Shown here: piece after piece, positions 5,159-64,000 of the stretch
Layout: every line of letters starts with the position of its first letter
Numbering within the stretch: the first letter of the stretch is position 1
Source of the DNA: an uncultured Actinomycetota bacterium
Lineage (GTDB): Bacteria > Actinomycetota > Actinomycetes > Mycobacteriales > Micromonosporaceae
Length of the DNA: 64,000 nt
Assembly: GCA_963803345.1 (NCBI GenBank)
Contig: CAWDLX010000013.1
Location: 133,804-197,803 of the forward strand
Direction: 5' to 3'
Made by a program: the position numbers and the translations under genes
Notes under the pieces: generated by a model
Databases searched by the model: none
Seen by the model: only the letters and a program-made list of their open reading frames with translations
Told to the model about the DNA's origin: nothing

Positions 5159-5203
5159 AGGTTTCCGATTGTCGGCATATACCGGTCGACGTATCGTGGC
5201 GGC

Positions 5204-5616: not shown

Positions 5617-5853
5617 GTGGTAACGGTGCGGTACTTCGCGGCCGCCCGCGCGGCGGCGGGGGTCAGCGAGGAGACATTCGATGTGCCGTCACTCGGCGCG
5701 CTGCGCAAGGAACTCGCCGCGCGCGGCGAGCGGATGGCGCGGGTCGTCGAGGTGGCGAGCTTCCTGGTCGACGGTCTCGCCTGGCACCAGGCGGACGCGC
5801 CTCTGCCGCGCACCTGCACCGTCGACGTGCTGCCACCCTTCGCCGGGGGCTGA
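5617..5853 (+). CDS. moaD: MoaD/ThiS family sulfur-carrier protein
   Basis: ORF 5530-5853 ends ...VDVLPPFAGG* (C-terminal GlyGly). The homologous start is GTG 5617 (VTVRYFAAARAAAGVSEE...). An alternative ATG at 5533 overlaps the padR stop (TGATG) and would add 28 aa. Confidence 0.75.
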   Translation: MVTVRYFAAARAAAGVSEETFDVPSLGALRKELAARGERMARVVEVASFLVDGLAWHQADAPLPRTCTVDVLPPFAGG

Positions 5854-5866
5854 ACCGTAGCGCCGC

Positions 5867-5971
5867 GCCGGAGGCGCCATATAGCTCCGTGCCGGAGGCG
5901 CCATATAGCTCCGCGCCGGAGGCGCCATATAGCTCCGCGCCGGAGGCGCCATATAGCTCCGTGCCGGAGGC
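5867..5971. repeat. 24-bp tandem repeat, about 4.4 copies (GCCGGAGGCGCCATATAGCTCCGY)
   Basis: Units at 5867-5890, 5891-5914, 5915-5938 and 5939-5962, plus a partial unit at 5963-5971. Copies differ only at the last base (T/C). The repeat is intergenic, between moaD and the metallophosphoesterase gene. Confidence 0.9.
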
Positions 5972-6039
5972 CGCAATGTCGATGAGTGCCGTAGGGATTG
6001 CCTCAGGCGCCATTCGGTAGGTTGGCCGCCGGAGGGAAC

Positions 6040-7179: not shown

Positions 7180-7236
7180 TAACGGACAGTATCGACACGC
7201 CACAACACGCGCGCCCGGCCGCCCTGGGCGCCGCCG

Positions 7237-11642: not shown

Positions 11643-12877
11643 TCATGGTCGTTCTCCGGTCAGCAGGGGCAGCGGTACGAACGGCACAGCGGAGCCGGCC
11701 TCGCCGGTGTGCCCGGGGGCGATCACGGCGAAGCCGTCGGCCCGGACCAGACCACGCAGCATGGCCGAGCCGGAGTGGGCCAACGGGTGGGCGAGGCCGG
11801 AGGCCTCGATCCGCACCAGCGCCAGGTGGGTCTGGTCCCCCCGCCCGGGGATCGGTCTCGCCGAGAGTCACCTCGCTCATCGCCGGCGCGGCCCGACCCG
11901 TCAGTCCGGCCAGCAACGGCACCACGAGGGACACGAGGGCCACGATGGCCGACTGCGGGTTGCCAGGTAGCCCGGCCACGAAAGCGGTACGCCCGCCGGG
12001 ACCCGCTCCGGGTACCTCGGCCAGCAGCATCGGGAAGCCCGGGCGGACCGCGACCGTATCGGCGATGTAGCGGGCGCCGAGTTCGGCCAGGGCCGGGTGC
12101 AGGTGGTCGACCGGCCCGTGCATCGTGCCACCGGTCGTGCAGACGAGGTCGGACACGGCCAGGGCAGCCTGGATCGCCGCTACGTGCGCTTCGAGGGTGT
12201 CCTCGACCGGACCCCGCGGGGCGAATCCCGGTACCGTCGCCGCACCGTAGCGCCGCAGCCATCCGGGCACCTGCGGTCCGAGCGAGTCGCGCACCCGGCC
12301 GGCTCCGGGCAGCCCTTCAACGAGCAGCTCGTCGCCGAACACGACCACGGCCGCCCGGATCGCCGGGATGAGACGCAGGGTCTGATAGCCGCAGGTGGCG
12401 GCGATGCCGACGACGCCCGGCGTGACCGGGGTGCCGGCCGCCAGCAGCTCGTCGCCGCGCGGCCGCCTCGTCGCCGGCGTCGCGCCACTCCCGTACCGGC
12501 CGGCCGGGACCGTTGACCAGCCCGTCAGCTTCCACAGTGGACTCTTCGGTGCGGATGATCTGCTCGGTGCCGTCGGGGACCATCGCGCCGGTGGCGATCT
12601 CTACGCACTCGCCGTCGACCGACGCGGGTGGCGACCTCACCGGCCAGCACCCGACCGGTCAACCGCCACGGGCCGGCGCCGCGGGTGGCGTAACCGTCCA
12701 CACTGGACGTTGGAAAGGCCGGGAGGTCGGTCAGCGTGATGAGCGGGTCGGCCAGGGTCAGGCCGTCGGCCTCGGCCAGAACCACGTCGACCGGGGCCGG
12801 CATGGCGGCGCGGCCGGCGGCGTAGGCGGCGGCCCGGGCGGCGCCCCAGGACGCGGTTTCGAGTCGGTCGACGTCAT
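11643..12877 (-). pseudogene. moeA: molybdopterin molybdotransferase MoeA, frameshifted
   Basis: ATG at comp. 12875-12877. Pieces: AMPAPVDVVLAEADGLTLADPLITLTDLPAFPTSSVDGYATRG (ORF 12525-12803); GECVEIATGAMVPDGTEQIIRTEE (ORF 12317-12640); VVFGDELLVEGLPGAGRVRDS...TTGGTMHGPVDH...VAVRPGFPMLLA...AGLPGNPQSAIVALVSLVVPLL (ORF 11602-12348). C-terminus HLALVRIEASGLAHPLAHSGSAMLRGLVRADGFAVIAPG...LLTGERP* ends at TGA comp. 11643-11645. At least 4 slips. Confidence 0.8.
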
Positions 12878-26246: not shown

Positions 26247-26810
26247 CTACCAGTCGATCAGAGCATCGGCGTTGATCTGGCAGGCTAGCGGGCCTTCCAG
26301 TGTCAGTGATTCGCCGCGGCCCGCCACGGCGTGCTCCACGAAATGATGGCCAACGAGTCGGAAGAGTCGAAGAGTCACGAAGTCGAACGCGACCAGATCG
26401 GGCTCCACGAGTAGGTACCACTCGATGTGTGCGGTCGCATAGAACTGCATCTTGAGCAGGCGGTCGTTCGCGGCGTTGCTCGGTGAGACGATCTCGCACA
26501 CCAGGGTGACCTCGGAGGCCTCGATGACTCCGCCGTGCGGGTCAGTGTCGGCCACGACGAGGTCCGGGATGACGATCCGGTCTGGGCCGAGACGAAGGTT
26601 GGCCGCCTCGTACGCGCGTAGGCCGGCGGCCCGGGCGGCCGGGCGGATCATGGCCATGAGGAGGAACGAGATGTCCTGATGCGGCTTGTTCGGAGCCGGG
26701 CTCACCCACAGTCCCCCGTCGATCAGCTCGATCCGGTTCGGCGTTTCGCCAAGCGCGAAGTACTGCTCCTCCGACCACGGGCCGGGATGTTCCAGCACGG
26801 CCGCGCTCAT
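26247..26810 (-). CDS. Uma2 family endonuclease (DUF820)
   Basis: Intact 187-aa ORF: WSEEQYFALGETPNRIELIDGGLWVSPAP, IPDLVVADTD, TLVCEIVSPSNAANDRLLKMQFYATAHIEWYLLVEP. This is the PD-(D/E)xK Uma2 signature. Confidence 0.85.
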   Translation of the reverse strand: MSAAVLEHPGPWSEEQYFALGETPNRIELIDGGLWVSPAPNKPHQDISFLLMAMIRPAARAAGLRAYEAANLRLGPDRIVIPDLVVADTDPHGGVIEASEVTLVCEIVSPSNAANDRLLKMQFYATAHIEWYLLVEPDLVAFDFVTLRLFRLVGHHFVEHAVAGRGESLTLEGPLACQINADALIDW

Positions 26811-26907
26811 CGCGATCCACCTCCGTACGATTGGTGGTCATCTTATCGCGGCGGCCTGGTGCTCCCGTGCCGCAACGAGTCGATCGCGATTGTCAGGCTC
26901 GACGCGG

Positions 26908-27391
26908 TCAAGCGACGCAGAATTCGTTGCCTTCTGGGTCGGCCATCGTGACCCAGGTCGAGCCGCCCTGCTCGCCGTCCCATAGCTTGCTCGCTCCGGC
27001 CTTGAGCAGTCGGTCGACCACCTCGCCCGCCGCTCCGGCCCGACGTGCAGGTCCAGATGCACCTTGTTCTTGATCTTCTTCGGTGGGCCGTGCGCCGGTT
27101 GTCGGTTCGCTAAGGATTGCCCTCCGGCACCACCTGGAACAGGACCCGGCCGCCAAGGCCGGAGCCGCTGCGCGGGTCGACCGGCGCGTCGGGATCGCGC
27201 ACGGCTGCGCCGTCCTGCAGGCCAGCCGGCCGTCCACAGTGGTCACATCGTCCTGGGTCACGCGACCCTCGTCGAGAGGAGCGGATCAAGGCGGAGTGGT
27301 CCTCGACCACGTAGTCCAGCGCCTCGGCCCAGAACGCGGCCAGCGTGTGCGGATCCTCGCAGTCGACGCAGACTTTGTATGCAACAGCCAT
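26908..27391 (-). pseudogene. VOC (glyoxalase-like domain) family protein, frameshifted
   Basis: MAVAYKVCVDCEDPHTLAAFWAEALDYVVEDHSALIRS (ORF 27110-27445, ATG comp. 27389-27391). ...KVHLDLHVG (ORF 26838-27062). ...EVVDRLLKAGASKLWDGEQGGSTWVTMADPEGNEFCVA* (ORF 26908-27261). At least 3 slips. Confidence 0.65.
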
Positions 27392-27433
27392 GGCTCGCAC
27401 GCTATGGCCGGCTACGACGAAGATTGTCCGCAC

Positions 27434-27967
27434 GTGAGCATTCACGCGACCGATCCGTTCGCGACCCCTGAGGACGCGAGGTCGAGCCTGCGCCGCCTAC
27501 GCGGACGACTGCCCGCGTCGGTCGCGTTGTGGACGGCCTGGGCGGGACGGCCGCCCAGCCGGGCTGACCGTGTCGTCGACCGTGGTCGTCGATGGTGACC
27601 CGGGCCGGGTGCTGGCGGTCATTGACGCGGAGTCCGAGCTGTACCCCGCGTACGGGACAGCGGCCGGTTCGCCGTCTGCGTGCTGCGCACATCTGACCGT
27701 CGGTTGGCGGACATCTTCGCGGGGATCATGCCGGTACCGGGAGGCCCGTTCCGCGAGGGTGGGACGAAACCGCTTCGGGCGCGTGCCCGCGGACGAGCCG
27801 TACCTGGGCTGGCTGCCGGTTGGACAGCGCCATCGTGATGGGTTATTGAGCAGCTGGTGATGGCCACTGTCGAAGCTATCCGGTTGGGGGACCATGGAGC
27901 ACCCCTGATCCATTACCGTGGCCGGTACGCCGACGGGCCGGCTGGCGGCCCGGGTGGGAGCGGATAG
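27434..27967 (+). pseudogene. flavin reductase family protein, frameshifted
   Basis: VSIHATDPFATPEDARSSLRRLRGRLPASVALWTA (ORF 27083-27598, GTG 27434; ATG 27404 is possible). LTVSSTVVVDGDPGRVLAVIDAESELYPA (ORF 27570-27860). Then ...RFAVCVLRTSDRRLADIFAG and ...VEAIRLGDHGAPLIHYRGRYADG...* with TAG at 27965-27967. Several slips. Confidence 0.6.
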
Positions 27968-27976
27968 GGTTTTCGG

Positions 27977-28961
27977 ATGGGCGTGCAGCCGCGCTTCGGT
28001 GCAGGCAGTCGGGTTCTGGTCGCCGGCGGTGCCGGATTCGTCCCGTCTCACCTCGTCGAGCGCCTGATCGCCCGTGGGGCCACCGTGGTGGCGCTCGACA
28101 ACTTCATCACCGGGGCGAAGGAGAACGTCGCGCACCTCGAGGGCCACCCGCGTTTCACGCTGATCGAGACCGACGTGTCCATGCCGATGCCGGCTGATGC
28201 TGGAGGCGCTCAGCCGCCGCTTCGACGCGATCCTGCACCTCGCCTCACCGGCCAGTCCGACCGACTTCCGCAAGCTGCCGATCGAGATCATGAAGGCCAA
28301 CGCGCTCGGCGCCCTGCACCTGCTCGAACGGGCGGTGGCCGACGGTGCCCGGTTCCTGATGGCCTCGACCTCGGAGGCGTACGGGGACCCGCTGGTGCAT
28401 CCTCAGAGCGAGGACTACTGGGGCAACGTCAACCCGGTCGGCGAGCGGGCCGTCTACGACGAGTCGAAGCGTTTCGCCGAGGCGGCCACGATGGCCTATC
28501 ACCGGGACCTCGGTGCCGATGTCGCCATCGTGCGGATCTTCAACACCTACGGCCCTCGCATGGCCATGACCGACGGGCGTGCGGTACCGACGTTCATCCG
28601 ACAGGCGCTGCGGGGTGAACCCATCACGGTCTTCGGTACCGGGAGCCAGACCCGCTCCATCTGCTACGTCGACGACCTGGTCTCGGGCATCATGGCCCTG
28701 CTCGACTCGACCGAGACCGGGCCGATCAACTGTGGTACGGAGCATGAGATCAGCGTGGTCGACCTGGCCCGCACCGTGGTCCGGCTGACCGGCAGCGACT
28801 CGCAGATCGTGTTCCTGCCCCGTACCCCGGACGACCCCGACCAGCGCCGTCCCGACCTGACCCGGGCCCGGACCCTGCTCGGCTACGAGCCCGACGATCG
28901 GCCCGGAGGAGGGCCTCCGCCGCACGATTGCGCGAACTTCGCGTCGCGAATCAGGATCTAG
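27977..28961 (+). pseudogene. UDP-glucuronate decarboxylase (UDP-xylose synthase, extended SDR), frameshifted
   Basis: ORF 27977-28618: RVLVAGGAGFVPSHLVERLIARGATVVALDNFITGAKENVAHL. ORF 28197-28961: [13 protein letters not shown]...[41 protein letters not shown]...[11 protein letters not shown]...[18 protein letters not shown]. Slips are near 28190 and 28890. Confidence 0.8.
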
Positions 28962-29091
28962 GGCGCGTCGCGAACATCTAGGGCGCGTCGCGTAGGCGGG
29001 CGCGTCGCTCGCATACCCCCTTTAGCACATGCGCGCAACACTTGTCCGTCGCGCTGCGCCGGTTCATCAGCGTTCGTCCGTACGCTGGGCA

Positions 29092-30332
29092 ATGATGACG
29101 ACACCGGGCCCAGAGGACAATCCCGAGCAACCGGCCCAGCGATGGACCGGCCGGGCCAGCGTCGGCTCCTCGGCTACGCCGGCGCCGGCCGCGCCCGGGT
29201 CGACCTCGGTGTCGGGCCGGGCGACCGTCGACGCGTACCGCGCCTCGTCGCTCCGCCTCCGCCGCCGGTGGCGGTCTGGCCCCGCCGCCGCCACCGGCGG
29301 ACCCGGCCTCTACGGCGGGGCGCCGGCAAGAGGAAGCTGAGGCCGCGTTGGGGTCGCATCGCCCTGGTCGGCCTGCTGGTCATCGGACTCGTCACCGCCG
29401 GCGTCGTCCTGTGGGGCTTCCTCTACATCCAGCACGTCAACGACAACCTCAAGCGCACCGACTCGATCGACAGCATGGTCGGCAGCACCCGCCCGGGGAA
29501 GGGGGTCTCCGGGGCGCTCAACATCCTGCTGCTCGGCTCGGACTCGAGGGACCCGGACCAGCCCGTCAACGTCGGTGGCAACTGGCGCACCGACACCATT
29601 GAGCTCATGCACATCAACGCCAACCACGACAAGGCGTACCTGGTCTCGTTCCCCCGCGATCTCTGGATCCACATCCCCAAGAGCAAGACCAGTCAGTACG
29701 GCGACACCGACGCCAAGATCAACGCCGCCACGGCATGGGGCGGGGTACCGCTGGTGGTGCAGGCGGTGGAGGAGTACAGCGGGGTCCGGATCGACCACCT
29801 CGCGTTGATCGACTTCGCCGGATTCGTCCAGGTCACTGACGCCCTCGGCGGCGTCGACATGAATATCGAGCAGACGATCACCTCGATCCACCAGCCGCAT
29901 CGGACGTTTCACGCCGGCATGAACCATCTCAGTGGTGCTGAGGCGCTCGACTACGTCCGGCAGCGCAAGCAGTTCGCTGACGGGGACTTCGCCCGCATCC
30001 GCCACCAGCAGGAGTTCCTCAAAGCGGTGCTGGACAAAGCGGTCAGCGCGGGAACGGTGGCGAGCCTGGACAGACTGACCTCGTTCGTGTCCTCGGTGGC
30101 CAACTCGTTGACGGTGGACAAGGACTTCTCGCTCCTCGACGTGGCCTGGCAGTTCCACAGCCTGCGTAGCAGCGATCTGACGTTCCTGACCTGCCCGAAC
30201 AACGGTACGGGCAACGTCGACGGACAGAGCGTCGTGCTGACGGACCCGGCCAAGGCGAAGTCCTTGTTCACGGCGATCAACGCGGACACGATGTCCCAGT
30301 GGATCACCCAACCCGGCAACGTACCGAAGTAG
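29092..30332 (+). pseudogene. LCP (LytR-CpsA-Psr) family glycopolymer ligase, paralog 1; frameshift in N-terminal tail
   Basis: The cytoplasmic tail MMTTPGPEDNPEQPAQRWTGRASVGSS... is in ORF 29029-29340. TM helix plus catalytic domain are in ORF 29142-30332: RIALVGLLVIGLVTAGVVLW, NILLLGSDSRD, RTDTIELMHI, YLVSFPRDLW, LDYVRQRKQFADGDFARIRHQQEFLKA. The slip is somewhere in 29225-29335. Confidence 0.8.
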
Positions 30333-30531
30333 CGCGCGGCCCGGCGACTGGTGCGGAGCAGGGCCCCGGTAGCCTGGGCCTGGCTGGGGCGGGCGTATCC
30401 GCGGTTGATTCGGTAGTCTGTCCGCGGCTTACCGCTGGACGCGCGGTGCCCCGTTTCCGCGCGTCGGTGCCCGGTGCACCCCAGTCGCTCGACGACGGGC
30501 AGCCCGATGACCCCTCCGTCGAGGAGCCGCT

Positions 30532-31716
30532 ATGACGATCTACGCCGACCCGGCGACGCGACCGCGTCGGCCGGGGGGCGACCCGCCGCGGCGTCCTCGA
30601 GCGAGCCGGTCCCGCCCCGCGCGGAAGAAGCCCAAGGATCCTATCTGGGCCAAGCTCTGCGTGATCATGGGCGCCCTCGTCATGGTCGTCGCTGGTGCGG
30701 CGGTGGTCCTGCCCCGGGTGCTGGCCAACTGGGCGGTGTCGAACATCCCGCGGGCGAACCTGGTACCACAGGGCCTGCAGGGCAAGGACATCAGCGGACC
30801 GATCAACTTCCTGTTGCTCGGGATGGACCAACGGCTCGGCAGCAATGACCTCATCCGGGCGGACACCATCATCATCGTGCACATCCCGGCAGATCATCAG
30901 ACCGCGTACCTGGTGTCGCTGCCCCGTGACGCCGAGGTGCAGATCCCGGCCTATCCCGATACGGGGTTCCGCGGCGAGCTCACCAAGATCAACGCTGCCT
31001 TCGCGTTCGGCTGCCAGAAGAACGGTCAGGGCGACTACACCACGCCGGCCGGGAGCGCGGTGCCGCGCTGACCATGAGACCATCAACGCGCTCGTCCCGG
31101 GCGGACTCACCTTCAACGGCGCCGCGATCATCAACTTCGACGGGTTCCGCGACGTCCTCAAGGCGATGGGCGGCGTCGATCTGTGCGTCGATGTGGAGAC
31201 CCGGTCGATCCACTACGACAACAAGGGCGTGTACCACACGAACGAGGTGCCATTCGCCCAACAGAAGGTCTACAAGGTCGGCTGCCAGCACTTCGACTAC
31301 ATCTCGGCCCTGGACTACTCCCGCCAGCGTCACTTCGACACCGGTGACTACGTACGCCAGCGTCACCAGCAGCAGTTGCTCATGGCGATCATGAAGAAGC
31401 TCGCCTCCGCCGGTACCCTGACCGACCCGAGCAAGCTGGCCGCGCTGCAGAAGTCAGCCGGCAACCTGTTGACCCTCGACCTGGGCAACACCTCCACCCT
31501 GGACTGGATCGTTCACCCTCAAGGGCATCGACACCAAACACATCGTGATGATCAAGACGAACGCCGGCAAGATAACGCCCGGCACGATCAAGGGCAACGA
31601 GGCGTTCTCGCCGGAGAGCATGAAGATGCTCAAGGCGATCCACGACGACAACATCTCGACTTCCTCGGCGGTCACCCGACTGGATCACCGCCGACACCAC
31701 CCCGAAGCAGGCGTGA
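30532..31716 (+). pseudogene. LCP family glycopolymer ligase, paralog 2; frameshifted
   Basis: ORF 30532-31071: TM LCVIMGALVMVVAGAAVVL, NFLLLGMDQR, RADTIIIVHI, YLVSLPRD. ORF 30695-31885 middle: INFDGFRDVLKAMGGVDLCVDV...LDYSRQRHFDTGDYVRQRHQQQLLMAIMKK. ORF 31545-31769: MIKTNAGKITPG... Ends ...WITADTTPKQA* at TGA 31714-31716. Confidence 0.8.
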
Positions 31717-31779
31717 GGCGAGCGCTCCGGCTTTGCACAAAGCCCCGGCGGCCGTTGCCCGGCGCCTAGAGTCGGCCCC

Positions 31780-32833
31780 ATGCCTGCATCGCCGGTGTCC
31801 ACCGACGAGTCGGCACCCGGCGCGGCGGCCCGGCGCGGGCGGCGGCGGTTACCCCGGATCCTGGTCGGCATTGGCATCGCCCTGACGCTGCTGATCGGGC
31901 TGGTCGCTGTCGGCGGGTTCCTGCTGGTGCGGCGATACGAGAGCGCCTTCAACCGGGATACCCTGCTCGCCCCGGGTGCCCGGGCGGCCGGCCAGGGATC
32001 GCTGTCCGGGCCGCTGAACTTGCTGCTGATCGGCTCGGACTACCGGACCTGGAGTCCCACGGCCGGTCAACGGTCGGACACGATCATCATCGCCCACATA
32101 CGCGAAGGCCTGGACCACATCTACCTGCATCTCGATTCCGCGTGATCTGCTCGTACACATCCCGGCTGATCCGGCAGGCGGTTCGGCGGGGCGGTTGCGA
32201 AGATCAACACGGCGTTCGAAGCTGGTCACGGCGGCTCAGCCGGGATGCAGCTGCTCTCACGCACGCTCAACGATCTGTCCGGGATCCGGTTCGACGGGGC
32301 GGCAGCGGTCCGCTTCGACGGTCTCAAGCAGGCGGTCGACCTGCTCAACGGGGTGAACTTGTGCGTGGACGTGCCCACCACCTCCATCCACACCAGGAAG
32401 TTCTTCCCGGTCGGATGCCGCCTGATGAACTCGACCGATGTCCTCGACTACCTTCGCCAGCGGGAGCAGTACGCGGACGGCGACTTCACCCGGCAGCGCC
32501 ATCAGCAGCAGTTTCTCAAGGCCATCCTGCAACGCGCGGCGTCCACCGGCATGCTGACCAATCCGGTGAAGCTCGACCAGTTCATCCGGTCGGTGGGCTC
32601 GGCGATGACGGTCGACACCGGCAGCCATTCAGCTCGCCGACGTGACCCTGGGGCTGCGCGGGATCGGCGCCGGTGAGCTCACCGGTGTCAAGATCCCTTC
32701 GTCCACCGAGACCCTCAACGGACAGTCGGTGGTCGTCGCCACCTGGGAGGCGAGTCCTCTGTTCGCGGCCCTGCGCGACGACACGCTCGACACGTGGATC
32801 CGCCAGCATCCGCGGTGGACGAACAACATCTGA
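31780..32833 (+). pseudogene. LCP family glycopolymer ligase, paralog 3; frameshifted
   Basis: ORF 31780-32145: TM ILVGIGIALTLLIGLVAVGGFLL, LNLLLIGSDYR, RSDTIIIAHI. ORF 32245-32676: RFDGLKQAVDLLNGVNLCVDV...LDYLRQREQYADGDFTRQRHQQQFLKAILQR. ORF 32642-32833 is the C-terminus ...TWIRQHPRWTNNI*. Confidence 0.8.
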
Positions 32834-32856
32834 GCCGCGCCTGCTATACAGGCCTT

Positions 32857-33198
32857 GTGTCCGACCGCCGAAGTCTGCCCGAGGTCAGTCCCGCCGAGGT
32901 GACTGACGACGCGCTCCTGATCGACGTTCGGGATGGCGACGAATGGGCGGCCGGGCACGCGCCGCAGGCCCGCCACGTGCCCATGATGGAGATCCCCGGC
33001 CGGGTCGACGAGTTGCCCCGTGACCGCGACATCGTGTTCGTGTGTCGGGTCGGCTCCCGATCGGCTCAGGTCGTCGCGTATCCTGATGGCCCAGGGGTTT
33101 CGACCGGGTGGCCAACCTCGGCGGCGGCATGTTCGCCTGGGAGGCGGCCGGCCGGGCCGATGGTCAGCGATGCCGGGCAGCCCGCCTTCGTGTTGTGA
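32857..33198 (+). CDS. rhodanese-like domain protein (ORF open, internal out-of-frame patch)
   Basis: GTG 32857 in ORF 32794-33198: LLIDVRDGDEWAAGHAPQARHVPM...IVFVCRVGSRSAQVVAY. The expected LMAQGF / RVANLGGGMFAWEAAGR segment is only readable in the two other frames (ORFs 33020-33319 and 33108-33881). The frame then returns for PMVSDAGQPAFVL*. Confidence 0.65.
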   Translation: MSDRRSLPEVSPAEVTDDALLIDVRDGDEWAAGHAPQARHVPMMEIPGRVDELPRDRDIVFVCRVGSRSAQVVAYPDGPGVSTGWPTSAAACSPGRRPAGPMVSDAGQPAFVL

Positions 33199-51641: not shown

Positions 51642-52533
51642 TCATCCGGGCAGTGCCTTGGTGATCGAGGCGCGCAGACCGGCCGGGTCGAGGCCATGCA
51701 GACGCTGATGGTCGGCGCGTTCGCCGTAGCGGTGCGAGTCGGTCCGGGTCACGCCCAGGCTGAGCAGCCGGTGCGGTACATCGGTCAGGGCACTGGACAC
51801 CACATGGGCCGAGGTGCCGGCCAGGTACGGCTCGACCAGCACCACCAGTGGCGGCGTCGTCAGGGGCCAGACGAGTTCCCGGGTGCCTTCGGCGTCCCAG
51901 GGCCGGGGGGTGTTGCTGTAGGCCACAGCCAGGTCCAGTCCTTCGGTCGCGGCCAGCGTCGGGGCGAGCATCGGCCCGACCGCCACGACCAGGCCCCGCT
52001 GGCCCGGCCGGATCAGGGCGAGCCGCCCGTGTGTCGCGTGTGGACGTTCGTTGTGGTCCTCGGCCAGCCGCACATAGACCGGCCGGTCATGACGCGCGGC
52101 TACCCGCAGCATCGGCTCGACCTCGTCACGCGTGTCCGGGCACCTGGACAGTCCAGCCGTCCAGCGTGTCCAGCAGCGCCACATCCCCGGGCCATGGTGG
52201 GTCCGCCCGGCGGTCGACGCGTCGTAGGAGGCGCCGACGCTGACCAGGATCGCACCGACACCCTGGTGACCGAGGTCGAGCTTCATCTGCTCCCAGGCGC
52301 GCTCGACCAGGAACGGCGTGTACGAGTGGGCGATCGGCCGCAGTCCGGTCAGCGCCAGCCCGCCGGCGACGCTGACCATCAACTGTTCCCGGATGCCGAC
52401 GTTGAGGACCCGGTCCGGATGGCGCTGGATGTGCACGCGAACCCCGCGGCCGAGATGTCGGCCAGTACCAGGGCGGTGCGCGGATCTTCGTCCAGCAGCG
52501 AGCCGTGATCGCGTAGAACGCATGGCGCATCAT
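51642..52533 (-). pseudogene. transketolase, C-terminal (pyrimidine-binding) subunit, frameshifted
   Basis: MMRHAFY... start at comp. 52531-52533, overlapping the upstream stop (ATGA). ...DHGSLLDEDPRTALVLADIS is in ORF 52379-53089. ...HPDRVLNVGIREQLMVSVAGGLALTGLRPIAHSYTPFLVERAWEQMKLDLGHQGVGAILVSVGASYD...PVYVRL...VGPMLAPTLAA... is in ORF 51642-52523. There is a further slip near 52170. Confidence 0.75.
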
Positions 52534-53214
52534 CCCGCCTTCCCTTCGATGTGGGCGACAACCACGTGGGGGCGGTCCGGTTCGTGGGCCAGCAGGGCGC
52601 CGCGATGGCTTCGTGGTCACGTCCGTCCACATCCGACGATGACCATCCGTTGACGGTGAACCGGGATGCGATACCGCCCGGCCAGCCGTGGGTGGCCGAT
52701 TCGTTGTCGATCACGACCACGGTCAGGCTGGCCAGCCCGATCGCGCCGGCATAGGCGATCGCCTCGTGGTTGGAGCCCTCGTCGAGTTCGGCGTCGCCGA
52801 CCAGCACGTAGACCCGCGGGGTCGTCAGTCCCTGGGCCCGCAGGCCGAGGGCCGACCCGACGGCGAGCGGCAGCCCGTGGCCGAGCGAGCCGGAGGAGAT
52901 CTCCACCCCCGGTACCCGCAGCCGGTCCGGATGGTGGCCGAGCGGGTTGTCCCAGCTGGCCACGTCGTCCAGCCATTCGGGCGGGATGAAGCCCTTCGCG
53001 GCGAGGACGGCATAGTAGGCGGCCGGACCGTGGCCCTTGGACAGCAGGAACCGGTCCCGGTCGTCGGCCGTCACAGTCTGCGGGGTCACTCGCAGGACCC
53101 GGTCGTATAGAACCCAGAGGACGTCCAGCGTGGAAGGGCGCTCGGCTCGTGCTTCTCGTCGCCGGTGAAGCGGGACAACAACTCATCGAGGATCACGATA
53201 CGATCGTGCAACAT
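52530..53214 (-). pseudogene. transketolase, N-terminal (TPP-binding) subunit, frameshifted
   Basis: ATG at comp. 53212-53214 (MLHDRIVILDELLSRFTGDEKHEPS). Then STLDVLWVLYDRVLRV, and ORF 52379-53089: DRDRFLLSKGHGPAAYYAVLAAKGF...HPDRLRVPGVEISSGSLGHGLPLAVG...VLVGDAELDEGSNHEAIAYAG...VVIDNES. Ends ...VVAHIEGKAG* at TGA comp. 52530-52532. The start is uncertain; see the SoxR-box finding. Confidence 0.75.
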
Positions 53215-55811: not shown

Positions 55812-55829
55812 GCCGGTGACGCTACCGGA

Positions 55830-56245
55830 ACACAGGTGCGGGCTGACGGGGACGCGTCGAGAACCGTGGCACCGAACGTTTCCCGGCCTCGACGACATCG
55901 TGCAGCGCGTCCTGGCCGTCGTCTTCTTCCGGTGGCCCCGGGTGCGCCAGGCCGACAAACGTCGACGCCTACGTCGAGAAGATCCTGGTCAACCGCTTCA
56001 TCGACGACCAGCGGCGCGGCTGGGCCAAGGTACGGCTGATGGAGTCATTGCCCGAACGGGCCGGCGGACAATCTCGAAGAGGTGCACACACGGCTGGACG
56101 TGCGCAACGCCTGCCGCCCTGGGCCAACGGGCGGTGCTGGTGCTGCGGTTCCTGTGTGACCGTTCGGTCGAGGACACCGCCGAGGCGTTGAACTGCCGCA
56201 CCGGCACGGTCAAGAGCACCACCAGCACCGGCCCGCAGGAGCTGA
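55830..56245 (+). pseudogene. ECF/SigE-family RNA polymerase sigma factor remnant (5'-truncated, frameshifted)
   Basis: ORF 55789-56847 and neighbouring frames give a region 2 fragment GLDDIVQRVLAVVFFRWPRVRQAD / VDAYVEKILVNRFIDDQRRGWAKVRL. Region 4 is RAVLVLRFLCDRSVEDTAEALNCRTGTVKS. Only about 20 codons are available upstream of DDIVQ before the divergent purC start, although these sigmas normally have about 45. Confidence 0.5.
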
Positions 56246-57041
56246 TCTACGCGGTCGACCCGGCCGCCGACACGAGCTTCGTCGGCGGCGACTGGGTTGA
56301 CGTGACACTCTGTGCCGCCGGGATCATCCCCTGGCAACTGCGTCCAGGCGGGCGTCCAAACGCCAACGGCCGTGCCGTACCGCAGCGGCAGAACGCCGCC
56401 CCGGTAGGAGGACGGGGCGATCCGGCCGTACGGTTCACATTCGATCCGTCCACTGTGGTGCCCGCCGGAGTGGACACTGTGGACGGACTGGCCTTCCGGT
56501 GGGCCGATGGCGCGTGGGTGGTGGTACGGGCCGTGCTGGGAGCGGCGGAGCCGTCGGCCGAGGTGGCCCGCCGGGTCGCGGAAGGACTGGTCTTCGGTCC
56601 GGGCGACCGGGTGCGGATGCCGTTCACGATGGCCCGCCCGACCGCCGCGTCCACGCTGGTCACGACGTCCGCGTGGAACGACACACCGGGGGCGTTCGCG
56701 TTGGGATTCAGCCTGCACCCGGCTGTGGTGCGCAACGCGGTCGGCGACGCCGTGTCAGGCGCGGGCGAGCTGAGCATCGGACTCGTGCGGGCGCGCTGCC
56801 GGACGCGCAGCCCAACACCACCATCGGTGGACGACCGACGTACGTGAGCTACTTTCCCGGTGGTGTGTCAGGCCGGGTGGTCCTCTTCGGCGAGGAGAGC
56901 TACGTGGAGCTGACGGTCGGCCTCGGTGAGGGCATGGACCACCTCGGCCGGGAGCAGGCGATCGCCCTGGTGGCCAGCGTCCAGGAGCTCAACCCATCCA
57001 GCGATCGCAGCACGTGGAGCGACCCGCCGCTGCGGGACTAG
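56246..57041 (+). pseudogene. hypothetical protein downstream of sigma factor (N-terminus apparently fused or lost, frameshifted)
   Basis: Continuation of ORF 55789-56847 (...VRFTFDPSTVVPAGVDTVDGLAFRWADGAWVVVRAVLGAAEPSAEVARRVAEGLVFGPGDRVRMPF...). Then ORF 56499-57041 (...PNTTIGGRPTYVSYFPGGVSGRVVLFGEESYVELTVGLGEGMDHLGREQAIALVASVQEL...*). No start, TM or anti-sigma segment is identifiable. Confidence 0.35.
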
Positions 57042-57058
57042 CGACCCGCCCCTTGGGA

Positions 57059-57958
57059 CTAGGCGGGAGCGTCCCCTGTGGACGGACGGAACCAGGTCAG
57101 CGGATCGTCGTCAACGTCCTGTCCGGCCGCGGCGAGGGCGCTGACCACCATCGTGCGACGGTAGGCGGCATATGTCACGATGTGGGCGACCATGCCGGCG
57201 GCGGTGAACAGGTACGGCGGATCGCCGGTCGCATCGACGAAGGTCTCGTCGAAGCTCTCCCGCTGGTCCAGGCCATGCACGTACGCCGAGAACTCCGGAC
57301 CGACCCTGGCCAACCGGGCTCTGATCGCGGCGATCGTCTGGTGCTCCTCCGAGGCAAGGTCGTAGGGCACGCTGGCCATCGCGGCCAGCCACATGTCGAG
57401 CTGACCGGCCAGTCGGGCCAGCAGCGACCGGACCGTGGGGTCGGTGTCGATGCCCGGCCCGGGCGGGTGCAGCGGTGCGTCGAGAAGGTCATCGCCGAGC
57501 TGATCCGCCCGGTCGAGCAGTTGCTGCAGTACGGCGATGTGATGGTCGACCAAGCTGGCGATCATGCGGGTGGTCCCCTTCCTGGCCGGCAGCCGCAGCC
57601 CGGCCGGTGGATAGAAGTGCACGCCGTTGGGCGTAGGCAGGTGGAAACTGGCGCTCGCCGAGCGCCACTGCTGCGGCGACCGGTAGTAGACCCGTTGGAA
57701 CGCCCGGGTGAATGCCTCGTGCGAGGTGTACCCCGCCTCCATGGCGGCGTCGATGATCGGGACACGTGTCGTACGCAGCCGGTAGGCCGCCCGTTCCAGT
57801 AGTACCCGCCGGCGCAGCCGACCTGGCGTCTCGCCCCCGAGGGCGCCGACCACCCGGTCGAACTGGGCACGCGACAGGTGCAGATGAGCGGCCAGGTCGG
57901 CCGGCCGCGCGCTCGGGTTCCCCGTGAGGCGGGCAACGAACTCGGCGAACCTGTCCAT
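57059..57958 (-). CDS. AraC family transcriptional regulator with C-terminal helical (DinB-like) domain
   Basis: ATG at comp. 57956-57958 inside ORF 57059-58009: MDRFAEFVARLTGNPSARPADLAAHLHLSRAQFDRVV...LRTTRVPIIDAAMEAGYTSHEAFTRAFQRVY is an AraC HTH pair. The C-terminal part, IASLVDHHIAVLQQLLDRADQL...LAGQLDMWLAAM, is labelled DinB-like by inference only. Confidence 0.75.
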   Translation of the reverse strand: MDRFAEFVARLTGNPSARPADLAAHLHLSRAQFDRVVGALGGETPGRLRRRVLLERAAYRLRTTRVPIIDAAMEAGYTSHEAFTRAFQRVYYRSPQQWRSASASFHLPTPNGVHFYPPAGLRLPARKGTTRMIASLVDHHIAVLQQLLDRADQLGDDLLDAPLHPPGPGIDTDPTVRSLLARLAGQLDMWLAAMASVPYDLASEEHQTIAAIRARLARVGPEFSAYVHGLDQRESFDETFVDATGDPPYLFTAAGMVAHIVTYAAYRRTMVVSALAAAGQDVDDDPLTWFRPSTGDAPA

Positions 57959-58152
57959 CCGACCATCCTGCCGCCCGCGCCGCCCTCCCCGCTTGATCGC
58001 CTTCCGCAACCCTTCTGGATCTTGTCATTCCGAGGCCCCTCTGGGGGCTCAGACATGCCAAGATCTCGGCCGCCATCGCCACCTCTCGGCGGGCGGCGGT
58101 GATCTGGTGTCTGGCACACTTGCGGTCGGGACACCGGCGCGCCGGTCGTCTT

Positions 58153-58239
58153 GGAGGGCTCGCCTAGTGGCCGATGGCGGCGGTCTTGAAAACCGCTTCA
58201 GGAGCGATCCTGACGTGGGTTCGAATCCCACGCCCTCCG
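58153..58239 (+). tRNA. tRNA-Ser (anticodon UGA)
   Basis: The sequence folds by hand. Acceptor GGAGGGC / GCCCTCC plus discriminator G. Anticodon stem GCGGT/ACCGC with loop CTTGAAA (TGA). Long variable arm TTCAGGAGCGATCCTGAC. T arm GTGGG-TTCGAAT-CCCAC. CCA is not encoded. Confidence 0.95.
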
Positions 58240-58518
58240 CCTTGACCAGCCATAACGGAGATCGCACCTGGAACCCGCAGGGGTGATCTTGCCGGTATGG
58301 ACACTCTATGGACACAGACTGCCGAGAGATTTCCCGGAGCCGTACACGGGCGGACGAGGGGCGACTCGACCCGCCCACCAGTGACTGCCTTCCTGGCGGC
58401 ACAGCAATGCGTGATATGCCGTGGACGGGTCACCGGCCGAGGTGAGCACATCGACCACGAGGCGTGATGCACGCTTCTGGGCCTGCCGGGTCCGTTTACC
58501 CTCGACCTGAACTTTGCG

Positions 58519-61100
58519 CTAACTGGTGGCTCGTATGCGTTCGCGTGCCTGAACACGCAGCGCTTGTCTGACCTCCGTGTGGACGTCGACGCGTGCGGTG
58601 GCGGCCAGCTCGAGCGAGACCGCGATGCCGTACCGAACAGGCGGCGAGGCCGTTCTGGCTTCGCGAATGCCTGCGTCGATGTCGATGCGAAGCGCTTGCC
58701 CATTGGTGAAGGCGACTGCCGCGCTTCCTTCGAGAACTTCGTGCTGCACCGTGCCTCTTGTCACAATGTGATGATCGGCCTGGGTCCGTCGCACTCCGAT
58801 CTCCTGCTGCGGCGGCTGAAACTTGAGCACCGCCAAACGGTGGCGCTGCGTGCGGGTGTTGACGGGCGACAGCCACGCCAGCGTGATCGTCATTCGCCTC
58901 CACTCGGTCGTTGTGGAGAGGCTTGGTGGAAGCGGGAAAGCAAGTGTGTGGCGCTCGTGATCGCGAATGGACCCGGCGCCAATGAGCACGGCACGGGTCC
59001 GGCTCGCTGCAGCCACTCGGTCTCGATCGAGGGCGCCGTATCCGACGAGCTGCGTGACGTCGCGCCTCAACGTCGCGTTCGCCAAGCCGAGCGCGTCTGC
59101 GAGCCAGGGCCTCATCTCGCCCCACGAGGCGGCGTGCACTAGGAGCGCCTTGGCTAGGACCGGGTGATACTGCGGGTCCGGGAACCGGAACTCGCCTTCC
59201 TCCGATTCGGTCGTCTCCAGCACGTCAAGGACTTGGTTGGTGATCCGTGTCGCGAGCGCGGCTGCGTTGCTAGTGCCGTGGGTGAACGCGGTCGCCTGAA
59301 GGTCCCCGTGGTGGCCTGGCGCTGCGACACGTAGACCTGGACCGAGCGCCGCTGTCGAAGCTGGCAAGAGCGCCACGTGGCTGCCCGTGGTCTGGGGCGG
59401 CCGTTGAAACAGCTGTCGGCCGCCCGGGAGCAGGATCTCGGGTTTGACCGCTCGCCGGTAGCCGAACCCGACCGCGCTGTACAGCGCGGGCATGCCTGCC
59501 TGACCTGCGTCCAAGATTGAGTCAGAGACCGTCGCGTCCGCGTCGTCGTCATGGAGGGCGCCGACGGTCACGACGTTGACGGCTTCGGCGGGCGAAAACA
59601 GCCGCCGCTGACGAGCACGGGAATGGATGTCCGCGGCAACGATCTTGCGGAGAGTTGTCTCGTCGTGAACGACGTGCGCCGGGAACAGTGGCGGCCACTG
59701 GATGGTTGCCCGCGCTTACCAGGACGACCAGGTTGTAGCGGTGGGCAAGCCAGTCGAGAAGCTTGGCTAAGGGGCTCATGCGGCGGGCGAAGGTTCTGGC
59801 CGGATCCCCGATCGACAGGTTGACTACACGCACGCTCGGTGCGGCCGGCGGCTGCTGGCCGTCGCCCTCGAAGATGCGGCGGAAGGCTCGGTGAACCAGG
59901 TCCACGAGCAGCTCGTTGCGGACCGTCGTCTCCTCCTGGGGGTTGGCCGGATGCGGCTCCAGGATCGGCCGAACATATAGCCGGGTGGATAGCGGAAGCC
60001 CTTGCGAACCGAGGTCACCGTGGCAGATAAGGGAGGCCATCGCTGTCCCGTGCTGGCGCTGCGCGGCTGTGTACCGGCTCGCGTAGTCATCGGGGTCGTC
60101 GATGACAAGTCGGTCCGCAAGTTGGGCGTGGTTGGCGAGCGGTAAGCCGTCTAAGAGCGCAACACGCGGCGCCGCAATCTGAGGAAGGGGTGCCGTTTCA
60201 GCCGGACCCGCCTCCGATACATCGAGCGCGGGGATAGCCATCGGGCGTGCAGGTGATACGAACATGATCGTCTCCGCGGTGAGGAGCTCGATCGCGTCCG
60301 GGCCAGCTTCGAGTACCGCTTCGACTTGCGCGTAGGGAAGATCCGCAAGAACGGCGTGGTAGCCGATCTCGGCAAGTGTTGCGGTGTTGATCACCGTGCC
60401 TCCGCCGTCGGCTACCAGTCGTTCGACCTCACCCTGAGCGGCCTGTCGACTAGCGATGTCCGATCGGTACCACAGCTCGATCTCAACGCGCGTTGACCCT
60501 GACTGTCCGACGACGGCCTTGTCTTCCTCCCATCTTTCCAGGAGCCCTGTCTCGCGAACCCGGTCCTGGGGTCCCCACCGTCGGATGTCACGCAGGAGCC
60601 CGAACACCGTCTTCAACGAGGCGAGGCCATAGGCGAAGGTGACGTTCGGGTTCGGTCTGCCATCCATCGAACAGTCGGATGAGCTCGGTGACGGCCCGGG
60701 CGTTCGTCATGACCATGTAGAGGGTTTCCGGCACCGGCTTGTCGGCGGGCTGGCCATCTTCGACGTAGTGGAAGTCGTCGTCAGGGTCCGCCTCGTCCTC
60801 CTCTAACTCAGCCAGAAACTCCATGCCTGGAACGCGGCGAACAGCGCCAAGAAACTGCTCAACCGTTCCCACGAGGTCAAAGACGACCACCAACTCCGGA
60901 TCTGGTTCGGTGGTTTCGGTTGCCAGTCGGGCGCGTTCCGCAGCCAGCGCGTCCCGGAGGGCCCGGAACTGGGGGGACAGGCGCTGCCCCTGCCTGGACG
61001 GACTTGGACGGCGCGGTTGCGGTACCGGCCGCTGCGGCCCCGGGGGCGTCTGCTGGACCGTCGGCGCGCCGAAGGCCAGCAATTGGCGCAACTCGGTCAT
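58519..61100 (-). pseudogene. S8 family (subtilisin-like) serine peptidase, IetS-like; two frame slips
   Basis: Three reverse ORFs join. ORF 60588-61121: MTELRQLLAFG...ELVVVFDLVGTVEQFLGAVRRVPGMEFLAE...LYMVMTNARAVTELIRLFD. ORF 59549-60667: ...VALLDGLPLANH (Asp), QHGTAMASLICHGD (His), NLVVLVSAGNH. ORF 58519-59571: ...AFTHGTSNAAALATR (Ser)...LLVHAASW...LSPVNTRTQRHRLAVLKF... Slips are near 60655 and 59700. The ATG at comp. 61098-61100 overlaps the ATPase stop (ATGA). An alternative start is 61121. Confidence 0.8.
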
Positions 61101-62071
61101 TCGTGGGCTTGCGTCCGCCATTGGTCCAGTCTGCTACGAGCGATAGCGCCAAGGTCGGCATCTGGCAGCGTCAACACGTAGCGTCGTCTTACGTCTTGAG
61201 CGAACTCTTCCAACTCCCCGTAGCTCGCGCCCGCGAGTCGGTCCGCCAACGTACGAGGTGCGAGCCCCAGGCCACCGCCGAGCCGAGTGCCCAGCCGTTC
61301 GAAGAACTCGGCTGCCTGGGCGCGCGATGGCGCATTGAGGGTCAGGCGTGCTTGGAACCGGCGCCAAGTTGCCCGGTCGAGCAGCTCGCCGTGGTTCGTC
61401 GCGCAGACGAGGATGACGTGCGAGGGAATCCTGTCGACCTGCAGCAGAAGCGTCGACACCACCCGTTTGATCTCGCCGGTCTCGTGAGTGTCGGCGCGTT
61501 CCTTCGCGATCGTGTCGAACTCGTCGAAGAACAAGACACAACGCCGGGTCCGAGCGAACTCGAAGACCCGGTCGATCCGAGCCGCGGTCTCGCCGAGAAA
61601 GCTGGACACCGTTCCCTCGTACCTGACCGTGTACAGGGGCACCATGACCTCGGCAGCGATGGCTTCTGCCAGGCTGGTCTTGCCGTTGCCGGGCGCGCCC
61701 TCCAACAGGATCCTGTTGCGCGGCTCGATGCCATGACTTCGCAGCAGGTCGACCCGGCGGTGTTCCTCAACGATCTCGGAGGCCACGGTCGCGACGGTCT
61801 TGTTGAGCTGCAGGTCGGCAAGGCGCCGGCGGGGAACGACCTCATGCAGCAGGTCCGACATCTGCCGCCTGACCTCGTCCCGAACGAGAAGATCACTTGA
61901 GCCAGACGTAGTGATCAGCTCGGCGAGACGGTCGGCTACAAGGTGGTGCTGGTTGCTCCGCTCCTCGGCGATGATCGCTTCAACCAATGAGCGAAACCGC
62001 TCACCATCGCCTCGGCGTTGGGCGTCGACCAAGTCGATGATCAGATCAGACCGGGCCACGGCTTCCTCCAC
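61097..62071 (-). CDS. AAA+ family ATPase, IetA-like
   Basis: Intact 324-aa ORF. Walker A: ILLEGAPGNGKTSLAEAIA. Walker B: CVLFFDEFDTIA. Sensor 1: LVCATNHGELLD. Also RATWRRF. It lies immediately upstream of, and is translationally coupled to, the S8 peptidase gene. Confidence 0.85.
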   Translation of the reverse strand: MEEAVARSDLIIDLVDAQRRGDGERFRSLVEAIIAEERSNQHHLVADRLAELITTSGSSDLLVRDEVRRQMSDLLHEVVPRRRLADLQLNKTVATVASEIVEEHRRVDLLRSHGIEPRNRILLEGAPGNGKTSLAEAIAAEVMVPLYTVRYEGTVSSFLGETAARIDRVFEFARTRRCVLFFDEFDTIAKERADTHETGEIKRVVSTLLLQVDRIPSHVILVCATNHGELLDRATWRRFQARLTLNAPSRAQAAEFFERLGTRLGGGLGLAPRTLADRLAGASYGELEEFAQDVRRRYVLTLPDADLGAIARSRLDQWRTQAHE

Positions 62072-62158
62072 CTGTCGACTTACCCAACTGTAAGGGCCGC
62101 GGTGCCCGGAGGTCCTGGCAAGACCTGTGAGCGACGGCCGTTAGTATATGATAGTCAT

Positions 62159-62449
62159 ATGATTCAGGCGGGACCGTCGGTGACACGCTTGTTGTGCGCG
62201 ACGGACCGTTGCTCGACGCTGGTCCACTGGCCCATCGAGGTGAATCGCAGGCTTGATCAACTTCAGGATCTCGCGACCGGTGCGGGGACCCACGTCAGCC
62301 GCGCTCAGATCCTGGCTGCACTGGTGATGGCCGCGGAAGAGAGCGGTGAGGCCGTCGCCGAACTCGTCCGCATATATCGCCTCATGGAGGCGGGCGACCT
62401 CGCCGAGCCTGCCGATGGACGCCGACCTGGCCCCCGCAAGATCCGTTAA
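62159..62449 (+). CDS. hypothetical small protein (possible ribbon-helix-helix-like regulator)
   Basis: ATG 62159 inside ORF 62018-62449: MIQAGPSVTRLLCATDRCSTLVHWPIEVNRRLDQLQDLATGAGTHVSRAQILAALVMAAEESGEAVAELVRIYRL... The strand-helix-helix pattern is only suggestive. It is divergent from the ATPase gene. Confidence 0.4.
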   Translation: MIQAGPSVTRLLCATDRCSTLVHWPIEVNRRLDQLQDLATGAGTHVSRAQILAALVMAAEESGEAVAELVRIYRLMEAGDLAEPADGRRPGPRKIR

Positions 62450-62716
62450 CACTGAAGGTCGGCGCCGTGGCCTTGCCGGTGAGGGCGTCCGGTGTTCGTG
62501 TCAAGTGAGGGTGCGGCGAGCAAAGTCCTTGCACCGGGCACGACATGGCCGAATTCGGGCGCTTAGTGGAGGCCCGGCATCAATGACAGTTCCGTCGGTG
62601 CGGCGGGTGGGGTACGTCCTGTTGGACCTCGCTAGGGTTGCGGCATGTAGCTCCGCCTGAAAGGCCGTAGGGCTAGGGCCGGGGCTTAACGCGCACCAGG
62701 AAGGACGAGCTGCCGG

Positions 62717-64000
62717 ATGCCCCGCTTGACCCTGCCGCAGCTGGAGCGGCACCTGTTCACAGCTGCCGACGTGCTCCGCGGCTCCATGGAGGCATCGGCC
62801 TATAAGGAATACATCTTCGGGATGCTGTTTCTGAAGTATGCCTCGGACCAGTTCGAGGCGGAGCAGCAGCAGGTTATCGCCGAGCAGCGCTTACGTGGCC
62901 GCAGCCAGGCTGACGCTGAGCAGCGCGCCGAGTCGCCGTCGTTCTACAAGACGTTCTACGTGCCGCAGCGGGCCCGCTGGGAACAGATCCGTGATCATCT
63001 CCATAAGACGGTCGGGAGTGGGCTGAACAAGGCGCTGGAGGAGCTGGAGCACAGTAACCGGTCGCTCGACGGGGTGCTGCAACACATCGACTTCAACCGC
63101 AAGATCGGCCAGTCGTCGATGTCCGACAAGAAGCTGCGCGAGCTGATCATGCACTTCAACAAGGTGCCCCTCCGGCAGCAGGACTTCGAGTTCCCCGACC
63201 TGCTGGGCGCTGCCTACGAATACTTGATCCGCGACTTCGCCGACTCGGCAGGGAAGAAGGGCGGGGAGTTCTACACGCCCCGCGACGTGGTCCGTCTGAT
63301 GGTGCAGATCGCCGACCCGCATCCAGGGATGAGCGTTTACGACCCATGCACCGGCTCGGGCGGCATGCTGATCCTCTCCAAGGAATACATCGAGGAGTCG
63401 GGTGGTGATGGGCGCAATCTGGCGCTCGCCGGCCAAGAGAAGGACGGCAGCGTCTGGGCCATCTCCAAGATGAACATGCTGCTCCACGGCATCCCGGACG
63501 CCGACCTCCGCAACAACGACGACGGCACGCTCGAAGACCCGGCTCACATCACCGGCGGTGAGCTGCAACGGTTCGACCGCGTGATCACCAATCCGCCGTT
63601 CTCGATGAACTACGTGGCTGACGCCATCCCGTTCCCCGAGCGCTTCCGTTACGGCTACACCCCCGACAAGGGCAAAAAGGCCGACCTTATGTTCGTCCAG
63701 CACATGCTGGCGGTGACTCGGCCGGGCGGCATGGTCACAACGGTCATGCCTCACGGCGTGCTCTTCCGCGGTGGAGACGAGGGCCGGATCCGTACCGGTT
63801 TCCTGAACGACGACCTCATCGAGGCTGTCATCGGCCTCGGGCCGCAGCTCTTCTACGGCACGGGCATCCCTGCCTGCATACTGGTGCTCCGCCCGGTCGG
63901 CTCAAAGCCCGCGGCGCGCAGGGGCAAGGTGCTGTTCATCAACGCCGACCGGGATTACCGGGAGGGCCGGGCGCAGAACTATCTGGAGCCCGAGCACATC
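62717..64000 (+). CDS. hsdM: type I restriction-modification system methyltransferase subunit HsdM (3' end outside window)
   Basis: Not in the ORF track because it is open at the window edge. ATG 62717, 428 codons in frame to base 64000: [46 protein letters not shown] (HsdM N domain), [30 protein letters not shown] (motif I), RVITNPPFS (motif IV), [10 protein letters not shown]. Confidence 0.9.

Follow-up and report, generated by a model that had tools for sequence, protein, structure and literature searches.

The window analysed here is a stretch of 64,000 nt from an uncultured actinobacterium (Actinomycetota, Micromonosporaceae; GenBank assembly GCA_963803345.1, contig CAWDLX010000013.1, positions 133,804 to 197,803 of the forward strand). 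Its last 5.8 kb, directly 3' of an intact tRNA-Ser(UGA) gene, contain an IetAS defence module, which consists of an AAA+ ATPase (IetA) and a subtilisin-like S8 protease (IetS), a small open reading frame (ORF) divergent from ietA, and the 5' part of hsdM, a methyltransferase gene of the type I restriction-modification (RM) kind, which leaves the window (Table 1). This segment is likely the tRNA-proximal portion of a defence island that was acquired horizontally and consists of at least two independently mobile cassettes. The reading is carried by a step in nucleotide composition at the tRNA gene, the identity of the genes, the mobility of their relatives elsewhere, and a flank 3' of the tRNA that varies between related loci.

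Table 1. Features of the tRNA-linked segment at the 3' end of the window
Feature	Position	Strand	Evidence
tRNA-Ser(UGA), intact	58153..58241	+	ARAGORN; Rfam RF00005, 53.9 bits, full model
Spacer, tRNA 3' end to ietS stop codon, 277 nt	58242..58518	.	Sequence; blastn; flank comparison
ietS, subtilisin-like (S8) protease, three frames	58519..61121	-	PADLOC IetS PDLC04233; tblastn; frame reading
ietS ORF 1	60588-61121	-	PADLOC IetS PDLC04233 positions 1-148 of 855
ietS ORF 2	59549-60667	-	PADLOC IetS PDLC04233 positions 148-480
ietS ORF 3	58519-59571	-	PADLOC IetS PDLC04233 positions 507-851
ietA, AAA+ ATPase, 320 aa	61097..62059	-	PADLOC IetA PDLC04232; Pfam AAA
Divergent intergenic region, ietA / small ORF, 99 nt	62060..62158	.	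Sequence, GC count
Small ORF, 96 aa, divergent from ietA	62159..62449	+	tblastn vs 97-aa ORF of L027 and L029
hsdM, type I methyltransferase, first 427 codons	62717..64000	+	PADLOC MTase_I 1.1e-206; Pfam HsdM_N + N6_Mtase

The G+C content drops by 5.8 points, from 70.7% over positions 1-58152 to 64.9% over 58242-64000. Background windows of equal size (5.76 kb) within 1-58152 have a mean G+C content of 70.8% (standard deviation 1.3, minimum 67.3%), which places the island 4.6 standard deviations below them. At a resolution of 300 nt, the step lies at about 58.0-58.3 kb, the position of the tRNA gene. The strand-symmetric tetranucleotide L1 distance of the island to the background is the largest in the window (0.26 vs 0.10-0.18 in all other 5-kb windows). 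A change of composition right after tRNA-Ser(UGA) had been proposed in an earlier interpretation made from the letters alone (the sequence-only reading), and both computed profiles bear it out with a shift at 58.2 kb. The three hand counts offered there (55.0%, 61.7% and 83.3% G+C) are all exact, but the contrast was overstated because the 83% line is an outlier against the 70.7% background and thus unrepresentative. The gene content described there 3' of the tRNA, namely an AAA ATPase, an S8 peptidase, a small ORF and hsdM leaving the window, was recovered in full. The label of a defence island is right as well, since the PADLOC models name the operon IetA/IetS and the last gene a type I methyltransferase. 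The compositional shift has its proximal edge at the tRNA gene, which is the candidate attachment site.

The ORF at 61097-62071 on the minus strand matched the PADLOC profile IetA PDLC04232 over its full length (1.1e-141; residues 6-323 on profile positions 2-321 of 330) and Pfam AAA (3.6e-28), and Walker A and B motifs are visible in the protein. The start of ietA was placed at a GTG codon at 62059 that is preceded by GGAGGA, which yields a length of 320 aa typical for homologues; the public record calls IetA at 254 aa only. A 100% identical protein (P0030) is on record, on a contig of 199,235 nt under NCBI and ENA that also encodes a second protein with 100% identity to one of the window (P0244), and the best non-identical relative (P0001) has 89% identity. 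IetA scored 206 bits against the NCBIfam equivalog model 'IteA_antiphage', under its cut-off of 510 bits, and therefore represents a divergent subfamily. The end of ietA overlaps the start of ietS at 61121 by 25 nt, likewise in relatives, and with the S8 protease gene adjoining in the same operon the PADLOC IetA and IetS matches form a complete two-gene IetAS module.

The protease gene is full length and collinear with intact homologues of 862-872 aa, and is read in three frames, a split that had escaped the sequence-only reading. A tblastn search with the 872-aa IetS of the related locus L027 aligned aa 1-156 at 61121-60651, aa 161-481 at 60637-59681 and aa 481-866 at 59682-58528. The frame changes fall at CCC runs near 60645 (GAACCCGAAC) and near 59681 (GTTCCCGGCG). 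Peptidase_S8 was detected by Pfam, and the motifs flanking the S8 Asp, His and Ser residues as well as an SAGN motif are visible. Comparable breaks occur in other genes of the window: moeA (11649-12875, minus strand) is in four pieces and three frames, a gene of the LytR-CpsA-Psr (LCP) family (30592-31558, plus strand) is split in two at about 31.05 kb, and adjoining ORFs for transketolase subunits (51645-53155, minus strand) overlap by ~80 nt. Related metagenome contigs with names in the style of long-read assemblers also have fragmented genes. The frameshifts of ietS are probably indel errors of long-read metagenome assembly and not decay, because housekeeping moeA and the LCP gene are broken likewise. 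The window resembles an indel-rich long-read metagenome assembly, and hence no apparent pseudogene in it is trustworthy. We considered ietS as a true pseudogene and set this aside as unsupportable, given the same breaks in housekeeping genes.

The truncated HsdM matched Pfam HsdM_N (4.7e-30) and N6_Mtase (8.1e-81), and reached 177 bits against TIGR00497 (cut-off 243), the protein being cut by the window end. Its gene is closely related to those of L025 and L026 (98% aa, 91% nt identity) and of L033 (85% nt). Similarity to these three loci starts at 62592-62716, 0-125 nt upstream of the gene, and the DNA further upstream is unrelated. Judged by this homology boundary, hsdM is a mobile module separate from IetAS. 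The two modules occur together in no plasmid record, and with the separate boundary of hsdM this makes the island a mosaic of at least two cassettes. Both L025 and L026 are independent ENA metagenome contigs that end within a few hundred bases upstream of hsdM (L025 1-208, L026 1-358), as if strain-level variation at the module boundary had broken the assembly graph.

Downstream of hsdM, L033 encodes an intact hsdS, a 1101-aa hsdR and a YgjP-like gene, and in L025 and L026 hsdM is followed by HsdR-domain fragments and YgjP; hsdS was called only in L033. The earlier proposal that hsdS and hsdR lie beyond position 64000 is a reasonable guess, since HsdR-domain ORFs and YgjP follow hsdM in all three related loci, and by analogy with these we expect hsdS, hsdR and a YgjP-like gene there. 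A GmrSD-type (DUF262/DUF1524) restriction gene and a PLD-DEAD-DUF3427 helicase gene were found downstream of the RM modules of L033 (8741-13347) and L026 (9298-11923); by the same analogy, they might be further defence cargo of the contig from which the window derives.

Codon usage and gene relatedness set the island apart from its surroundings. The G+C content at third codon positions (GC3) is 0.70-0.77 in ietA and ietS vs 0.82-0.91 in the high-GC3 ORFs of the window. In two other hosts, IetAS has a GC3 of ~0.75, and their other sampled genes have 0.84-0.97. IetA and HsdM have relatives of 89% and 98% identity on other contigs, compared to at most 63-73% for neighbouring genes: after itself (100%), the AraC-like gene directly 5' of the tRNA has a best match of 63% among the candidates scored from a collection of 5.8 billion clusters, and purC has a best match of 73% in a scan of metagenome contigs. 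Relatives of IetAS are flanked by ISL3 and IS3-family transposases and are located on plasmids of Mycobacterium, Mycolicibacterium, Gordonia, Rhodococcus and Rhizobium, once beside parA. In all, four lines of evidence for ietAS and two for hsdM point to a foreign origin. The possibility that IetAS is mainly phage-borne was rejected, as predicted viral contigs hold only distant relatives (≤55%).

The site next to the tRNA gene was compared with related loci. In the four closest purC loci (72-73%), a tRNA-Ser(UGA) gene precedes purC by about 100-175 nt and is encoded on the other strand, which identifies the purC/tRNA neighbourhood as common to these relatives. None of the four has the island genes conserved beside tRNA-Ser; unrelated DNA follows the tRNA in all of them, and past the first ~15 nt it differs in each of these contigs and in the window, except that L035 is identical to L034. 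As judged from these four metagenome loci, two of them identical and none from the same species, the comparison supports a variable site 3' of tRNA-Ser(UGA). The first ~15 nt of the spacer between the tRNA and ietS (TTGACCAGC) are similar to the trailer of L038 and L034, and the remainder had no blastn match in any locus compared. About 55 nt past the tRNA, two copies of TATGGACAC are spaced by 11 nt (58296-58315), and the corresponding flank of L038 contains four CGGACAC motifs; these repeats could be protein-binding (arm-type) sites or chance occurrences. A promoter and terminator scan gave no signal over the shuffled expectation.

On the other side of the tRNA, 2.3 kb of near-background G+C content (55812-58152) separate it from purC, compared to ~100-175 nt in the four closest purC loci. 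They encode an ECF-sigma-like fragment with sigma-70 region 4 only and the AraC-like regulator (Pfam HTH_18/HTH_AraC and DinB_2 in the precomputed annotation), and remodelling may have affected the 5' side of the tRNA as well. With this AraC-like gene as synteny anchor in a scan of genome contigs, the best match was 60%, and a tRNA-Ser gene was near none of the 24 loci (0/24).

Two relatives carry partial tRNA repeats at the far side of the inserted DNA. In L034 (JGI contig Ga0209889_1000633, ~330-8048), a 62-nt copy of tRNA positions 29-90 lies 7.3 kb downstream and is followed by a copy of the flank with 82% identity, an arrangement that resembles integrated elements in tandem. Between the tRNA gene and its partial copy lie genes for a TIR_2 and TPR protein (5605-6525) and a PadR regulator, and the other ORFs tested had no Pfam match. 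In Cellulomonas sp. 73-92 (L114, MKTH01000013.1, 9632-15957), a 6.2-kb ietAS island extends from a tRNA-Ser(GGA) gene to a second, perfect copy of 55 nt of that gene's 3' part, with a G+C content of 0.65-0.67 inside and 0.70-0.77 outside. It contains ietA, ietS, a 73-aa ORF and, beside the distal repeat, a gene for a 618-aa protein without family match. The IetA of this island is 77% identical to that of the window, and the locus was recovered from ENA, JGI and NCBI records. With its position between tRNA-Ser(GGA) and the 55-nt repeat, this island documents that ietAS can be the cargo of an island integrated at tRNA-Ser. The partial tRNA repeats of L114 and L034 support, by analogy only, a putative integrase-mediated insertion into tRNA-Ser(UGA) in the window. 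The island would have entered by site-specific recombination into the 3' part of the tRNA gene, in which case a 50-65-nt copy of CGGTCTTGAAAACCGCTTCAGGAGCGATCCTGACGTGGGTTCGAATCCCACGCCCTCCGCC would lie at its distal end.

Several observations weigh against this interpretation or parts of it. The last 27 nt of tRNA-Ser(UGA) have no copy in 58242-64000 at up to 3 mismatches, and no integrase, excisionase or recombinase gene is among the ORFs of that segment; the sequence-only reading had already stated for the window that it shows no integrase and no direct repeat of the tRNA 3' end. The island leaves the window, and an integrase may be encoded beyond position 64000. Synteny was judged on distant relatives (purC ≤73%), and neither purC nor the AraC-like gene (≤63%) led to a close one. 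In L114, ietAS points away from the tRNA, whereas ietS of the window points towards it and ends 277 nt from it; with this opposite orientation, the two islands are not the same element inserted by one directional reaction. The low G+C content of hsdM stems from the first and second codon positions (GC2 0.40, as in its relatives), a point absent from the earlier interpretation; its GC3 of 0.87 is like that of the high-GC3 ORFs of the window, so that low G+C content alone is no evidence of its foreign origin. Finally, ietS as written contains two frameshifts, which would leave the IetAS system dead should they be genuine.

Part of this evidence favours the main alternative, which we consider rather unlikely, namely that the defence genes were gathered piecemeal by transposition of insertion sequences (IS) or homologous recombination at a hotspot, with the position next to the tRNA being incidental or a permissive site. 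Such accretion fits the missing integrase and direct repeat within the window, the location of IetAS relatives between ISL3 and IS3-family transposases, the separate homology boundaries of modules that are never found together in plasmid records, and the reversed ietAS orientation relative to the Cellulomonas island. It also fits that the repeat-bounded islands of L034 and L114 have no recognisable integrase either. Against piecemeal accretion, the composition step falls no further than ~100-200 nt from the 3' end of the tRNA, and partial tRNA repeats like those of 55 and 62 nt in two relatives are classically left behind by site-specific integration at tRNA-Ser genes. The segment 58242-64000 shows neither a transposase nor an IS end. 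Direct and inverted repeats in 57900-64000 are only short, chance-level matches, and the tRNA 3' part has no attP-like copy in viral contigs.

A chimeric assembly join at tRNA-Ser, by which the island would derive from the genome of another organism, is very unlikely. The metagenome assembly is error-prone, with frameshifts in moeA, the LCP gene and ietS, the source contig is on record under NCBI and ENA only, and the composition step falls exactly at a conserved 89-nt gene; the L025 and L026 contigs, moreover, break just upstream of hsdM. The frameshifts, however, are present on both sides of the tRNA, and an 89-nt repeat is generally too short to mislead a long-read assembler, long reads being suggested by the many indels. 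In addition, independent assemblies contain tRNA-linked islands with IetAS or TIR cargo and direct repeats, one of them recovered from ENA, JGI and NCBI. That the genes are long-resident in the chromosome, with low G+C content from amino acid composition and tRNA adjacency by chance, is equally improbable: hsdM has the GC3 of the high-GC3 ORFs and owes its low G+C content to GC1 and GC2, and the 27.5-32.5 kb region (LCP and epimerase genes) also has only 67.7% G+C, but ietA and ietS have a GC3 of 0.70-0.77 that recurs in unrelated hosts, the island genes have 89-98% relatives elsewhere compared to none over 63-73% for their neighbours, and the tRNA flanks differ among related loci except for the identical L034 and L035.

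We thus retain the horizontally acquired island at tRNA-Ser(UGA) as the likely explanation. A broader generalisation, that IetAS travels in small islands that target actinobacterial tRNA-Ser genes without a recognisable integrase, is improbable; its basis is two cases, tRNA-Ser(UGA) here and tRNA-Ser(GGA) in Cellulomonas. If true, such islands would either be mobilised in trans by the integrase of another element or use an unrecognised recombinase, for which the 618-aa protein of L114 is a candidate.

The small ORF shares 68% aa identity with an ORF of 97 aa that likewise lies upstream of ietA and divergent from it in L027-L032, the closest IetAS loci, and its conservation is limited to this clade. 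A role as universal IetAS partner was rejected because the ORF is absent in the Cellulomonas locus and that on a M. lentiflavum plasmid. It belongs to no Pfam, PADLOC, PHROG or NCBIfam family, with only a sub-threshold match to YscG, and its single-sequence AlphaFold2 (AF2) model had a pLDDT of 58 and was unusable for searching. The 99-nt region between the ORF and ietA has an AT-rich 3' end (GTTAGTATATGATAGTCAT), the source of the 55% G+C line mentioned above, and presumably serves as a putative shared promoter and operator of both. From its conservation and position, the small ORF appears to be a clade-specific accessory gene, perhaps for a regulator acting on this region, and it would probably regulate the ietAS operon. 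Its sequence pattern suggests, as a guess, a ribbon-helix-helix regulator; that the IetAS subfamily has in the 96-aa ORF a third component, with a regulatory role, is improbable. Related loci contain further ORFs without family match: a 212-aa ORF after ietS in L027-L032 (L027 6238-6876) and a 252-aa ORF before ietA in L027 and L028 (L027 1220-1978). The 212-aa ORF was considered as a component of the window as well and rejected, as tblastn gave no match.

Elsewhere in the window, the stretch at 26250-33100 has the second-lowest G+C content (66-69%). It encodes a Uma2-family putative endonuclease (26250-26837), an epimerase, three LCP genes and a rhodanese, and these look like cell-envelope genes, not an island. 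ARAGORN called a 92-nt tRNA-Ala(cgc) at 28520-28611 that had no Rfam support and lies inside the frame of the NAD-dependent epimerase (28176-28943); it is probably a false positive.

The locus places two known defence systems once more at a variable site next to a tRNA gene, in an actinobacterial lineage that has been sampled poorly, and adds modestly to the evidence that mini-islands integrated at tRNA-Ser can carry ietAS. It also corrects the annotation of genes that automatic callers split or shortened (IetS in three pieces, IetA at 254 aa) and warns that the frameshifts, being probably assembly errors, should not be taken as pseudogenes. No long-standing question is opened by it.

The plasmid-stabilising role of IetAS was reportedly described on an Agrobacterium Ti plasmid, and its anti-phage function reportedly by Gao et al. 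in 2020. The first description of IetAS was that of a toxin-antitoxin pair that stabilises plasmids, in which a protease is the toxin and an ATPase the antitoxin, and family members protect against phage in a manner that requires protease activity, the anti-phage mechanism being unknown (PMC13069673). By extension from this published family work, the IetS protease of the window would be the toxic effector and IetA would restrain it; with the ietS frameshifts taken as assembly errors, the system would be functional. The window's module resembles described IetAS in the overlapping order of an AAA+ ATPase gene and an S8 subtilase gene, in its full-length PADLOC matches and in relatives on plasmids beside parA. 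It differs as an actinobacterial subfamily with a clade-specific divergent 96-aa ORF that is outside the described system, and in an ietS that is frameshifted twice in this assembly. Unlike the ietHAS variant, it includes no helicase.

In type I RM systems, HsdM2S methylates host sites, and unmodified DNA is cleaved by HsdR, which translocates along it. The system of the window would act in the same way, methylating host DNA and cutting unmodified invader DNA. With its HsdM_N and N6_Mtase domains and an nt identity of 85-91% to hsdM of loci with HsdR-domain ORFs and YgjP, it resembles the type I RM with a YgjP-like gene of the L033 kind, a likeness that is based on the first 427 hsdM codons only. 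Like the tRNA-linked islands of L114 and L034, that of the window directly follows the 3' end of a tRNA-Ser gene, is lower in G+C content and carries defence cargo including ietAS; it differs from them in having no visible repeat or distal end, in the reversed orientation of ietAS and in the attached type I RM genes. Both defence systems and the kind of island are already known, and the locus described here is one more instance of them.

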